This document shows, in pieces, positions 4,121-56,311 of a DNA stretch of 64,000 nucleotides. The stretch lies in the NCBI GenBank assembly GCA_949290865.1, contig CASETM010000074.1, positions 26,998-90,997 on the forward strand, in the 5' to 3' direction. Made by a program: the position numbers and the translations under genes. The notes under the pieces were generated by a model. It did not search any database. It was given only the letters and a program-made list of their open reading frames with translations, and was not told the DNA's origin. This stretch comes from an uncultured Bacillota bacterium. GTDB lineage: Bacteria > Bacillota_I > Bacilli_A > Erysipelotrichales > Coprobacillaceae. How positions within the stretch are numbered: position 1 is the first letter of the stretch; every line of letters begins with the position of its first letter.

Positions 4121-4149
4121 TTGCTATTAAAAACAAATTATAGTATAAT
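4121..4149 (+). promoter_or_regulatory. Sigma-A promoter of the riboswitch/antiporter transcript
   Basis: TTGCTA(4121-4126)-17 nt-TATAAT(4144-4149). Confidence 0.75.
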
Positions 4150-4155
4150 CCCATC

Positions 4156-4245
4156 GGGAATGAAGTTCTCCCTAAACAAAAGATTAAACTGCGTGATAGC
4201 TGATGACTTCTGTGTTTTCAATATGCACAGAGCATCAGTTTTTTT
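4156..4245 (+). ncRNA. Fluoride riboswitch (crcB motif) with overlapping intrinsic terminator
   Basis: GGGAATGAAGTTCTCCC...TAAACTGC...GCTGATGACTTCTG matches the fluoride aptamer pattern. Pseudoknot GAAGT(4162-4166)/ACTTC(4206-4210). Terminator CTGATG..TTCTGTG/CACAGAGCATCAG plus T7 (4200-4245) overlaps the 3' half of the aptamer. Confidence 0.9.
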
Positions 4246-4266
4246 GTCTTTTAAGGAGGAATATTT

Positions 4267-5478
4267 ATGTTAACATCACTTTCATTTATTTTTCTTTTAG
4301 GATTGGCTATGGCGGCTGTTTGTCAAAAGGTCAGATTGCCACGCATTATTGGCATGCTGGTAACGGGGATTCTTCTGGGTCCTTATGTTTTGGGACTGCT
4401 TGATGATAAGATCCTATCCGTTTCTGCTGATTTGCGTCAGATGGCTTTGATCATTATTCTGCTGAAAGCAGGATTATCACTGGATCTGGCAGATCTAAAA
4501 AAAGTGGGGCGACCTGCTATTTTAATGTCATTTCTTCCGGCGTCAATGGAAATATTGGCTTTCATTTTGTTTTCACCAACTCTGTTTCATTTTAGTTTTG
4601 CTGAAGCTGCATTGATGGGAAGTGTTCTAGCGGCTGTTTCTCCAGCAGTCGTTGTACCTAGAATGGTTCATCTTATTGAACAGAAATATGGAACACAAAA
4701 AAGTATCCCTCAGTTAATCATGGCTGGTGCATCATGTGATGATGTATTTATTATCGTATTATTTTCAACTTTTATGACGATGGTTCAAGGCGGAGAAATG
4801 AAACTGACAAATTTGATTCAGATTCCTGTCTCGATTTTATCAGGAATTGCTTTTGGTATTCTTGTTGGTTATGGATTAGCTATGTTTTTTGAAAAAGCAT
4901 ACCAAAGAAAACATTATGTAAGAAACAGCACGAAAGTCATCGTTATTCTGGGAATTTCTTTCATGCTTGTCAGTCTGGAGACATGGTGTTCTCCCTGGCT
5001 GCCTTTTTCAGGATTACTGGCAGTAACGGCAATGGCTGCGACCCTGAAAATGAAAAGTACTGTTTTTGTGTCAAAAAGACTATCAGAAAAGTTTGGAAAA
5101 TTATGGATTGCAGCTGAAGTCATCCTGTTTGTACTGGTTGGTGCTGCGGTTGATCTTCGCTATACCTTAACTGCTGGTCCAGTTGCACTGGTGATGATTT
5201 TTGTTGCACTGATTTTTCGCGCTGCTGGAGTTTTGCTTTGTTTGATCAAAACGCCCATTCAAGGGAAAGAAAGATGGTTCTGTGTTACTGCTTATATGCC
5301 TAAAGCTACGGTTCAGGCAGCAATTGGCGGAGTTGCTTTGGGAATGGGACTTGCCTGTGGGCAAATGATTCTATCTGTTGCGGTAATTGCCATACTGATC
5401 ACTGCTCCTGTTGGTGCTATCGGTATTGACTGTACATATCAGCACTGGCTTACTCAAGAAAAAAACGATTGTCAGTAA
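4267..5478 (+). CDS. Cation:proton antiporter (CPA superfamily, NHA2/SLC9B-like)
   Basis: 403-aa polytopic membrane protein; LAAVSPAVVVP, GASCDD (acidic pair), PKATVQAAIG; AGGAGG SD. Confidence 0.88.
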   Translation: MLTSLSFIFLLGLAMAAVCQKVRLPRIIGMLVTGILLGPYVLGLLDDKILSVSADLRQMALIIILLKAGLSLDLADLKKVGRPAILMSFLPASMEILAFILFSPTLFHFSFAEAALMGSVLAAVSPAVVVPRMVHLIEQKYGTQKSIPQLIMAGASCDDVFIIVLFSTFMTMVQGGEMKLTNLIQIPVSILSGIAFGILVGYGLAMFFEKAYQRKHYVRNSTKVIVILGISFMLVSLETWCSPWLPFSGLLAVTAMAATLKMKSTVFVSKRLSEKFGKLWIAAEVILFVLVGAAVDLRYTLTAGPVALVMIFVALIFRAAGVLLCLIKTPIQGKERWFCVTAYMPKATVQAAIGGVALGMGLACGQMILSVAVIAILITAPVGAIGIDCTYQHWLTQEKNDCQ

Positions 5479-5543: not shown

Positions 5544-5699
5544 ATGTTAGAAAAAGATGACAAAGAATATTGTATCATTTGTGGCAGAAAAACTGGATAC
5601 CGCCGTTTTCAGCCGATTGACAGTCGCCAGTATTATATTTATGGTGCTGGACAACTATGTCAGGAATGTTATCAGCAGATTTATTACAAAAGCAAATAA
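5544..5699 (+). CDS. Small (51 aa) Cys4 zinc-binding protein of unknown function
   Basis: AAGGAG SD at 5531-5536; CIIC...GAGQLCQEC. Confidence 0.65.
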   Translation: MLEKDDKEYCIICGRKTGYRRFQPIDSRQYYIYGAGQLCQECYQQIYYKSK

Positions 5700-5726
5700 A
5701 AAACTGTATCATTTTGATACAGTTTT

Positions 5727-6809
5727 TTACTGTTTTCTTTGCTTTTTGTAGTAATTAGAAATGCGTTTAACCTGTTTTAAACCGGATGCAATTAATGTCA
5801 GTATAACGATCCAAGCAGTGATTGTCAGGATAATCTGAACCAGATAGATGTCACTACCAAAAGTAATAGGCATATCCCATATAGCATGTAATACAATGGC
5901 AATAATCATAAACTGAATCATTGCATTATTTTTGGTTTTGCCAATAACAATTCCTCCACCAACCATGGCCGACCAGACAACATGCCCACCGATTGCGAAA
6001 ATTCCTCTGATCAAAAGGACATCAATCATTTGACCAGTACCATAATACATTAAAAAGTTAAAGGCATAGCCAGCTGTTTCAAAGACAGCAAAACCTGCTC
6101 CAATACATGCACCAATCAATAATCCATTTAAAATATAGCGATATTTATCCTGTTTAAGGAACTGATAGATAATGATACCTTTTCCAACTTCTTCACAGAA
6201 ACCAACAAGTATTGCTCCCATATAGTCCAGTTGCTGAACTTCAATAATGCTATATAGCAGTAAGGTTGAAAGCAAAGATAAAGCACCACCTAAAAAGAAC
6301 AGTTTAACAACTTCAAAAATAGAAATATTTCGTGGCGCATTTGTTTCCCAGAAAAAAACAACCAAAGCAAAAGGAATCGTCATGGCTCCGACAAAAATCG
6401 TTCCTGGAATTCCATTGGTGTTATTGAATGCTGTACTGATAAAAAGCAGACAGACAAAAGTTACAGCCAGCACTGCCAAAACCCTCATATAGAGCCAAGG
6501 TTTTGGCCATTCGTCCATGATTTCATGTTCTTTAGGTGTTGTTTTTTCTGTACCGCAGACGAACAGTTCTTCTTGTTCCTGTTTGGTATGAGGTTTAAAT
6601 ACCTGTGAAAATAATACACCTAAATCAATATCTACGTCACCACCTTCACCAGCGAGATTATTGATTGTTGAAGTTAGGTCATGCATTCCTTTTTTAACGC
6701 TTGTTTTTACCTGTTCATCTGTTGATTTGGCTGTACCAACTTTTGCACCACAGCCAGTACAATAAACCTGTCCTGGCTGAATTTCTTTACCACAGTTATA
6801 ACAATACAT
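5727..6809 (-). CDS. PrsW-family intramembrane glutamic protease with N-terminal zinc ribbon
   Basis: CYNC...CTGCG zinc ribbon; GFCEEVGK, GAGFAVFE, H..W, LHAIWD PrsW motifs. Confidence 0.88.
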   Translation of the reverse strand: MYCYNCGKEIQPGQVYCTGCGAKVGTAKSTDEQVKTSVKKGMHDLTSTINNLAGEGGDVDIDLGVLFSQVFKPHTKQEQEELFVCGTEKTTPKEHEIMDEWPKPWLYMRVLAVLAVTFVCLLFISTAFNNTNGIPGTIFVGAMTIPFALVVFFWETNAPRNISIFEVVKLFFLGGALSLLSTLLLYSIIEVQQLDYMGAILVGFCEEVGKGIIIYQFLKQDKYRYILNGLLIGACIGAGFAVFETAGYAFNFLMYYGTGQMIDVLLIRGIFAIGGHVVWSAMVGGGIVIGKTKNNAMIQFMIIAIVLHAIWDMPITFGSDIYLVQIILTITAWIVILTLIASGLKQVKRISNYYKKQRKQ

Positions 6810-15858: not shown

Positions 15859-15934
15859 TGGTCTCCCCGCACGGGATCGAACCGTGGACCCTCTGATTAA
15901 GAGTCAGATGCTCTGCCAGCTGAGCTACGGAGAG
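15859..15934 (-). tRNA. tRNA-Lys (anticodon CTT)
   Basis: 76-nt cloverleaf; TCTGA-CTCTTAA-TCAGA anticodon arm; GGTTCGATCC; encoded CCA. Confidence 0.97.
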
Positions 15935-17616: not shown

Positions 17617-17707
17617 GGAGACATACTCAAGAGGCTGAAGAGGCGCCCCTGCTAAGGGTGTAGGTCGGGAAACTGGCGCGAGGGTTCAAATCCCTCTGTC
17701 TCCGCCA
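17617..17707 (+). tRNA. tRNA-Ser (anticodon GCT)
   Basis: 91 nt with long variable arm; CGCCC-CTGCTAA-GGGTG; GGTTCAAATCC; CCA. Confidence 0.97.
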
Positions 17708-17717
17708 TTAGTTGTAT

Positions 17718-17794
17718 GGTCTGGTAGTTCAGTTGGTTAGAATGCCGCCCTGTCACGGCGGAGGTCGCGGGTTCGAGTCCCGTCCAGACCGCCA
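17718..17794 (+). tRNA. tRNA-Asp (anticodon GTC)
   Basis: 77-nt cloverleaf; CCGCC-CTGTCAC-GGCGG; GGTTCGAGTCC; CCA. Confidence 0.97.
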
Positions 17795-24147: not shown

Positions 24148-24154
24148 GCAGTTA

Positions 24155-24358
24155 AATCGTTGATGAAGATGAGTACCTTAAGGAATATCATAGAGAGAAC
24201 ATGGCTGGTGGAAATGTTTATAGGACTTATGGGAAAGCTACTTCGGAGAGTAACTCATCATTACCGTGAAACTGCGTTAAGGTCAATTAAGGGCATGTCT
24301 TTGACATGAACTAGGATGGTACCGCGCTTAAGTCGTTCCTAGAAAAGGACGACTTTTT
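24155..24358 (+). promoter_or_regulatory. T-box riboswitch, Ala specifier (GCT)
   Basis: Stem I with AGTA/GAA, AGAGA and GCTGGTGGAA boxes; specifier GAA-a-GCT-A-CTTC (24237-24239); T-box AACTAGGATGGTACCGCG (24309-24326); terminator 24330-24358. Confidence 0.9.
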
Positions 24359-56031: not shown

Positions 56032-56089
56032 AATATTATTGACAACATGTCAGGAATATTTATAATAATTTTTGTATATCATAATTAAA

Positions 56090-56311
56090 CTCAATGAAAA
56101 AGAGAGTAGTTAAATCATTTCATAGCAGCGAGTCAATGTTGGTGGAAGATTGACATGAAAGTTTTAATGAACCGCACTTTGGAGAGGATGGTCTGAAAAA
56201 AGTAGGGTCATCAGTACGCTGTCTTTACCAGCAAGAGGGAATATGTTTAACATATTAAAAAGAGTGGTACCGCGGATAAATTCGTCTCTTAGCTTAGCTA
56301 AGAGATTTTTT
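56090..56311 (+). promoter_or_regulatory. T-box riboswitch, predicted Arg specifier (CGC)
   Basis: AAAG-AGAGTA ... GAA-c-CGC-A-CTTT (CGC at 56173-56175) aligns exactly with the alaS leader GAA-a-GCT-A-CTTC; T-box AAGAGTGGTACCGCG (56260-56274); terminator TCTCTTAGC-TTA-GCTAAGAGA-T6 (56285-56311). Confidence 0.88.

Follow-up and report, generated by a model that had tools for sequence, protein, structure and literature searches.

How does a bacterium that lacks every known fluoride exporter respond to fluoride? The question is raised by a locus on contig CASETM010000074.1 of an uncultured Coprobacillaceae bacterium. Within the 64,000-nucleotide stretch of this contig that we analyzed (here called the window), a fluoride riboswitch stands directly ahead of a gene for an antiporter of the superfamily of cation/proton antiporters (CPA), one that resembles mammalian NHA2/SLC9B2. 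A fluoride exporter is found in more than 85% of representative bacteria, and those without one tend to be reduced symbionts (PMC11139923). This locus is about the cleanest natural case of another arrangement: one riboswitch, one gene, no Fluc (CrcB) and no CLC-F. We show that riboswitch and antiporter form a stand-alone cassette that recurs in related genomes and is nearly exclusive with CrcB, and we ask what a cation/proton exchanger might do for a cell exposed to fluoride.

The pairing of a fluoride riboswitch with an antiporter is already published and is not new. After exporters, Na+/H+ antiporters are the gene class most often associated with this riboswitch, a class traced to Baker et al. 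2012 as summarized in a 2024 review, where the assumed role is pH homeostasis (PMC11139923). Clostridioides difficile has a riboswitch-CLC-antiporter operon, CD0656-7 (PMC11477304). An earlier note on this DNA, made from the sequence alone, had listed such antiporters among the reported associations and had known of no demonstrated role. The association proves commoner than that wording implied. On the second point the note stands: within the searchable papers, our literature search found no experimental test of a riboswitch-linked antiporter, so the commonest cargo of fluoride riboswitches after exporters has been known since 2012 with its function undemonstrated in that literature. What is new here is an exporter-free genome with a single riboswitch, the linkage of the riboswitch to orthologues of the antiporter, and the near-exclusion of antiporter and CrcB.

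The leader is well supported as a transcriptional ON riboswitch for fluoride with one antiporter gene behind it, judging from its sequence and predicted folding. The Rfam covariance model RF01734 matches at 38.7 bits, above its gathering score of 34 (E = 3.6e-7 in the whole window, 3.1e-9 in the genome), with model positions 1-64 fully matched, and the same search finds no other fluoride riboswitch in the genome. Read from the sequence, helix P1 has four pairs (G4156-A4159 with U4169-C4172) and the pseudoknot has five (GAAGU, 4162-4166, with ACUUC, 4206-4210). The second aptamer helix is short: it consists of G4191-C4200 and C4192-G4199 only, and two of the four model pairs are deleted in the alignment. 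The modest score reflects this reduction to two pairs. The earlier note had proposed a covariance-model search as a check on what it called a complete fluoride aptamer with its pseudoknot; the score bears out the aptamer, and P1 and the pseudoknot are present, whereas the weak second helix means that 'complete' was too strong a word.

Just ahead of helix P1 lies a sigma-70-type promoter-like site, from which transcription is predicted to start at about the first P1 base, G4156. Shuffled sequences contain such sites at least as often as this region does; the consensus match counts only in context, and the site is credible because it is positioned just before P1. Downstream, the 5' arm of the terminator hairpin (4199-4215) overlaps the 3' strand of the aptamer, including pseudoknot bases 4206-4210. 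Since the pseudoknot strand lies inside the terminator arm, the ligand-stabilized aptamer and the terminator should be mutually exclusive, which is the geometry of an ON switch. Promoter, overlapping terminator and ON-switch geometry had all been recognized in the earlier note, within the span that it gave (4121-5478). Of 61 orthologous leaders with the 3' aptamer motif, 53 show the same geometry, a hairpin that takes in the CUGAUGA segment with a U-tract after it.

What kind of protein does this switch control? The 403-residue product matches Pfam family PF00999 (Na_H_Exchanger; E = 2.9e-43) and reaches none of the NCBIfam equivalog cut-offs. Among proteins of solved structure, human and bison NHA2/SLC9B2 match its sequence best (E = 2e-33 over residues 22-388), with NapA and NhaP far weaker. 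By fold the answer is the same. The AlphaFold model (predicted local distance difference test 77, predicted template-modeling score 0.75, 13 helices) is most similar to NHA2, with template-modeling scores of 0.83-0.85, and all of its top matches are Na+/H+ exchangers. As in the NhaA fold, the model has two interrupted helices, the breaks falling at about residues 122-125 and 343-348. The motifs SCDD (residues 156-159) and PKATVQAAIG (345-354) had led the earlier note to the NHA2/SLC9B branch, and both the sequence and the fold comparisons uphold that placement. The protein is the only close CPA homologue in its genome.

The ion site is highly conserved. In an alignment of 95 orthologues, E95, D158, D159, R318, K346 and T348 are kept in 98-100% of sequences; aligned to bison NHA2, they correspond to Glu214, Asp277/278, Arg431, Lys459 and Thr461. 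The marks of the NHA2/SLC9B group are thus in place: the DD motif, an arginine rather than a lysine on transmembrane helix 11 (TM11) with a glutamate partner on TM4, and a lysine and a threonine at the TM12 break in place of an arginine and an acidic residue. No anion site or anion-specific residue is evident among the positions conserved in these orthologues. The N-terminal helix TM-1, the fourteenth helix of NHA2 and its dimer interface, is absent: the match to NHA2 begins at residue 22 of the query and residue 141 of NHA2, and 13 helices are modeled. The protein is therefore NHA2-like in its core and ion site and does not have the full animal SLC9B architecture. In NHA2, an arginine replaces the proton-carrying lysine of NhaA and NapA, and the exchange has been measured as electroneutral (PMC8850199). 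From its ion-site residues, the protein studied here is predicted to exchange Na+ or Li+ for H+ electroneutrally, and it is most likely an electroneutral monovalent cation/H+ exchanger, not a fluoride carrier.

Could aptamer and gene have come together by accident? The antiporter family comprises at least 8000 proteins, many of them 65-70% identical, chiefly from gut Clostridia and Erysipelotrichales. We evaluated 38 orthologous loci from other genomes that had sufficient upstream sequence. RF01734 scores above its gathering score directly upstream of the gene in 30 of these (~80%), and just below it in one more. A pairing that recurs in this way is not due to chance. We also sampled two lineages, 101 genomes of the bacterium's own order and 151 of the Lachnospiraceae, many of them metagenome bins. 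In the own-order set, 34 genomes have a fluoride riboswitch match, one per genome: 29 matches lie upstream of an antiporter orthologue, 4 upstream of a true CLC-F gene, and 1 is dubious. The genes within 3 kb of 80 orthologues are variable and unrelated, and we dropped the idea of a conserved operon partner. The riboswitch and the antiporter are a stand-alone cassette. Cultured species among its carriers include Merdibacter massiliensis, Copranaerobaculum intestinale and Lachnospira hominis. Its frequency upstream of orthologues, its share of the own-order riboswitches and the lack of a partner all support membership in the fluoride regulon, and we are confident that the locus encodes a fluoride-switched cation/proton antiporter that is part of the fluoride response.

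There are signs that this cassette moves between lineages. On a quick maximum-likelihood tree, a well-supported clade dominated by Lachnospiraceae and Oscillospiraceae includes the protein, at the end of a long branch, and most orthologues from its own family fall outside that clade. The G+C content of the gene is 38-41%, as against 31-35% in its flanks. A congener carries the cassette in a different genomic context, where the leader and gene alone match, and shared synteny was dropped as a consideration. Horizontal acquisition of the cassette is likely, though not proven. Three further observations concern mobility. Antiporters in bins assigned to Bacteroidaceae, Prevotella and Bacteroides (L018, L021 and L075) are near-identical to those in Clostridia bins, with branch lengths of 0.03-0.05; either these are mis-binned contigs or they record very recent cross-phylum transfer. 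A plasmid search returned no close full-length copy, its best match being 54% identical on a 2.6-Mb replicon, together with a truncated fragment beside rmtB; carriage of the cassette on plasmids was set aside for this reason. The fragment, on Klebsiella pneumoniae IncC plasmid CP027695.1 (L177, 4016-4564), is the C-terminal half of an antiporter with ~50% identity to residues 212-402, a truncated passenger with the rmtB 16S rRNA methyltransferase gene on one side and, on the other, a groEL fragment accompanied by an IS91-family transposase. Of the 350 matching plasmid records, which are chiefly enterobacterial and conjugative, about 340 matched the antiporter over less than 80% of its length; the four such matches among those listed are all the same C-terminal half, CP027695.1 alone having been inspected.

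If the locus belongs to the fluoride response, are there other fluoride genes in this genome? Its assembly, 99% complete, comprises 107 contigs with a total of 2.33 Mb. A six-frame search for CrcB/Fluc (PF02537) gave 0 matches, with a control search that detects 11 of 14 known genomes. The genome has one CLC, a protein of 521 residues on contig 8 (L002, 162-1727). Its motifs are GSGIP and GREGP, the solved structures nearest to it are those of the Salmonella and E. coli Cl-/H+ CLC proteins (E ~1e-50 to 1e-52, as against 1e-7 for the CLC-F structure 6d0j), and its C-terminal tail matches a TrkA domain structure (3jxo). These motifs, the TrkA-C-like tail and the canonical relatives rule it out as a hidden CLC-F. 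A CLC-F query from a congener likewise found no match in the genome at E <= 1e-5. The earlier note had remarked that no Fluc or CLC-F gene lies in the window; this is true, and it extends to the whole genome.

We next consider how the antiporter is distributed relative to the exporters. Orthologues were counted at a threshold of at least ~190 bits and CrcB at the Pfam cut-off; CLC-F was defined by the motifs GNNLI/GMGLI, GREGT/V and GEVTP, with near-variants counted too (PMC11139923; PMC4113899). By Fisher tests, which ignore phylogeny, CrcB is significantly depleted among genomes with the antiporter. In the own order, CrcB occurs in 0 of 44 antiporter genomes and in 15 of 57 others (p = 1e-4), and any known exporter in 2 of 44 and 19 of 57 (p = 4e-4). 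Within the family alone the CrcB counts are 0/20 and 15/41 (p = 0.001), and among the Lachnospiraceae they are 1/45 and 34/106 (p = 1.5e-5). Strict CLC-F shows no association in the Lachnospiraceae (3/45 against 7/106). Among 50 genomes with the closest orthologues, CrcB was found in 2, and none of the CLC matches that were checked is a strict CLC-F. Altogether, 131 of the 139 carrier genomes examined (~94%) have no known exporter.

Some genomes carry antiporter and CLC-F together. In one Lachnospiraceae genome (G243; L172) the antiporter is preceded, 49 nucleotides upstream and on its own strand, by a CLC-F gene. A second such genome (G285; L173, L176) has separate riboswitches, with scores of 37.9 and 43.2 bits, for a CLC-F of the N-T type and for an antiporter. 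A separate CLC subfamily of ~420-450 residues is common in gut Firmicutes (L115-L122, L126-L142, L152-L171; for example L115, 1432-2706). Its members are nearer to CLC-F (30-39% identity, ~170-230 bits) than to canonical CLCs, and their signature sites, GTNx[IV], GREGA and GE[IV]VP, match neither of the published CLC-F subclades, N-T and M-V. These genes showed no upstream riboswitch motif, and they occur independently of CrcB (15/60 against 20/91) and of the antiporter. Because their signatures fall outside both defined subclades, we did not count these GTN-type proteins as CLC-F exporters; the counts were made both ways.

What, then, would a cation/proton exchanger do for a cell under fluoride stress? 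We lean, at a little short of an even chance, toward the view that the induced antiporter shrinks the pH gradient that traps fluoride. Without fluoride, hairpin 4199-4239 and its U-tract should halt transcription before the antiporter gene. With fluoride bound, the pseudoknot (4162-4166 with 4206-4210) would hold the 5' arm of the terminator, polymerase would read through, and the antiporter would be made. The protein would then swap Na+ (or K+ or Li+) for H+ without carrying fluoride itself, as argued from the conservation of the NHA2 cation/proton site residues across 95 orthologues. In a cell with no exit for the fluoride anion, fluoride would enter as HF and accumulate with the pH gradient, such that [F-]in/[F-]out = [H+]out/[H+]in. 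Such weak-acid trapping of fluoride has been measured as a function of the pH gradient (PMC4144673). We favor this model because an acid exterior, the situation in which fluoride builds up, should make an electroneutral exchanger move protons in and cations out. Proton entry would shrink the pH gradient, keep the membrane energy as voltage and let fluoride exit as HF. The logic would resemble Kef-type protective acidification and the practice, among fermenters, of allowing internal pH to drop so that acid anions are not trapped; in yeast, intracellular acidification is reported as a route to fluoride tolerance (cited in PMC11139923). The result would be an exporter-independent alternative to Fluc, redundant where Fluc is present.

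A bolder proposal, which we regard as possible yet doubtful, sees in riboswitch-linked NHA2-like antiporters a third stand-alone determinant of fluoride resistance among anaerobic Firmicutes, which would take over the function of Fluc in exporter-less genomes through collapse of the pH gradient or, with lower likelihood, through transport of fluoride. If true, it would explain how many free-living gut bacteria do without known exporters, and it would give a physiological meaning to the second-largest gene class of the fluoride regulon.

Several points weigh against a protective role of this kind. Occurrences of CrcB cluster by genus, and the Fisher tests take no account of this. The exclusion itself could have a simpler cause: a constitutive Fluc would keep fluoride below the level at which the riboswitch fires, and riboswitch-controlled accessory genes would decay. 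The antiporter coexists with true CLC-F at the background rate, which fits a helper no less well than a substitute. In 38 of the 101 own-order genomes and 65 of the 151 Lachnospiraceae genomes, exporter and antiporter are both missing; exporter absence alone is therefore no sign of replacement. Acidifying the cytoplasm is costly in itself, and both the direction of exchange and the cation are things that we infer. Finally, selection for fluoride genes may be weak in this genus, where they are subject to decay. Among the other species of the genus, two carry a riboswitch with CLC-F, one a riboswitch with a stop-broken CLC-F, two have CLC-F remnants and one has CrcB; one species has a riboswitch with an antiporter stopped at codon 99, and in the window genome both are intact. 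The stopped orthologue (L095, 1452-250, minus strand; genome G056) is 66% identical to ours and keeps its riboswitch, with the in-frame stop after residue 98. In another congener (L107) the riboswitch precedes a CLC-F split into pieces of 212 and 183 residues. Fluoride-defense genes in the host genus seem often to decay and be replaced.

Might the antiporter instead push protons the other way? It could expel them in exchange for incoming Na+, countering the acidification and loss of proton motive force caused by HF entry, either as a helper to an exporter or as an aid in acid stress. The 2024 review (PMC11139923) assumes such a role, and the earlier note had offered it too. It fits the co-occurrence with CLC-F, namely the single operons of G243 and C. 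difficile and the twin riboswitches of G285, and CLC-F imports one proton for each fluoride expelled. Three considerations make this explanation unlikely in our view. The direction is opposite to that expected of an electroneutral exchanger when the outside is acid: with Arg318 in the place of NHA2 Arg431, proton extrusion would need an inward Na+ gradient larger than the pH gradient, and it is a large pH gradient that makes fluoride accumulate. Raising the internal pH of a cell that has no exporter would trap more fluoride. And the 131 carrier genomes without a known exporter offer a helper nothing to help.

A role in cation housekeeping is distinctly less probable. Fluoride blocks glycolysis, at enolase, and ATP-driven ion pumps; once ATP-dependent extrusion fails, an exchanger driven by a gradient might keep Na+ (or Li+) out of the cell. 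The site residues are of the Na+/Li+ exchanger type, the antiporter has no close CPA homologue in its genome, and fluoride riboswitches are known to raise the expression of fluoride-inhibited enzymes (PMC9646797; PMC11139923). This account explains the near-exclusion with Fluc at most indirectly, however, and no Na+ pump gene is linked to the cassette. It differs from the pH-gradient model in predicting that the fluoride content of the cell is unchanged.

Direct export of fluoride was the other suggestion of the earlier note. In this reading the antiporter would expel fluoride, either as the bare anion or along with a cation, and would constitute a third family of fluoride exporters. Its appeal is plain: the gene stands alone behind the only riboswitch of a genome with neither Fluc nor CLC-F, and it is nearly exclusive with CrcB. 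The same kind of association argument once linked CLC-F and CrcB to fluoride, and the wider NhaA-type fold includes anion movers such as the bile-acid and auxin carriers. Nothing in the protein points to such an activity, however. The NHA2 cation/proton site keeps all of its acidic and basic residues throughout the orthologues, nothing anion-specific accompanies them, and co-occurrence with CLC-F at the background rate, even in one shared operon, would be odd for a redundant exporter. We consider direct export highly improbable.

We give least credence to the idea that the cassette was acquired horizontally and is intact but does little here under weak selection: the long branch in a Clostridia-dominated clade, the raised G+C content, the different context in the congener, deviations at 11 of 184 highly conserved columns (median 2), the premature stop in the congener copy and the CLC-F pseudogenes of the genus all fit it, but the reading frame, site residues, promoter, aptamer and terminator are all intact and the deviations are conservative.

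The features of the locus are collected in Table 1. Beyond the antiporter gene lies a small open reading frame (ORF) whose membership in the transcription unit is uncertain. Its 51-residue Cys-rich product belongs to no Pfam family, and it was not found beside any of the orthologues; we dropped it as part of a conserved module. The neighbors in the window are genes for a histidine phosphatase, a PrsW-like protease and an ABC-2 transporter. Elsewhere the window holds two T-box leaders (24151-24343 and 56085-56292, both on the plus strand, with 122 and 134 bits) and three tRNA genes (15862-15934 on the minus strand, 17617-17704 and 17718-17791 on the plus strand).

Table 1 Features of the riboswitch-antiporter locus, in window coordinates
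Feature	Position	Strand	Basis or remarks
Sigma-70-type promoter	-35 TTGCTA 4121-4126; -10 TATAAT 4144-4149	+	17-nucleotide spacer; 10/12 consensus matches
Fluoride riboswitch aptamer (crcB motif, RF01734)	4147-4219	+	Rfam covariance model
Predicted intrinsic terminator (expression platform)	4199-4245	+	15-pair hairpin 4199-4239; seven-T U-tract 4239-4245; -20.7 kcal/mol
Ribosome-binding site AAGGAGG	4253-4259	+	Read from sequence; 7 nucleotides before ATG at 4267
NHA2-like CPA antiporter gene	4267-5478	+	403-residue ORF, Pfam, structure match, predicted fold
Small ORF, 51 residues, CxxC...CxxC, possibly co-transcribed	5544-5699	+	Own ribosome-binding site; no terminator between antiporter and ORF; membership uncertain
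Bidirectional terminator hairpin ending the unit	5695-5731	both	15-17 pairs; common to convergent PrsW-like gene 5727-6809

The pattern of tight linkage, a mobile stand-alone cassette, near-exclusion with Fluc and tolerance of CLC-F yields a concrete hypothesis. If the antiporter alone lowers the fluoride load of the cell, the rule that fluoride resistance needs an exporter would have to be amended, and engineered strains that defluorinate or fluorinate compounds would gain a new handle for fluoride tolerance. Otherwise the locus belongs to a known regulon as one of its ordinary members.

How does the locus compare with known systems? With the antiporter class of the fluoride riboswitch regulon it shares the aptamer class, the terminator-type ON platform and the class of downstream gene. 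That published class has apparently not been resolved to the NHA2-like subfamily, to which the present gene is akin. In C. difficile the antiporter follows a CLC gene in one operon, whereas here it stands alone behind the only riboswitch of a genome without exporters. Mammalian NHA2/SLC9B2 (PDB 7b4l, 7p1i) has in common with our protein the DD motif, the Glu-Arg salt-bridge pair and the Lys and Thr at the TM12 break; an aromatic residue precedes that break in both, Y343 here and Trp456 in NHA2. Identity is only ~28%, however, and 13 helices are predicted here as against 14. NHA2 also has a domain-swapped N-terminal TM-1 at its dimer interface and a long cytoplasmic N-terminus, both of which our protein lacks. 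Fluc and CLC-F work in the same physiological setting under the same regulator, but their folds are unrelated to that of the antiporter, which gives no indication of an anion site; it is all but absent from genomes with Fluc and coexists with CLC-F, and any protection that it gives is probably achieved without moving fluoride. In logic, an analogy may be drawn with KefB and KefC of the CPA2 family. These are toxin-switched exchangers of the CPA superfamily that lower the internal pH protectively, and our proposal borrows the idea from them by analogy. Kef is gated at the protein level, by glutathione adducts acting through its KTN domain. Unlike Kef, the antiporter described here has no KTN domain and is controlled through its RNA leader.

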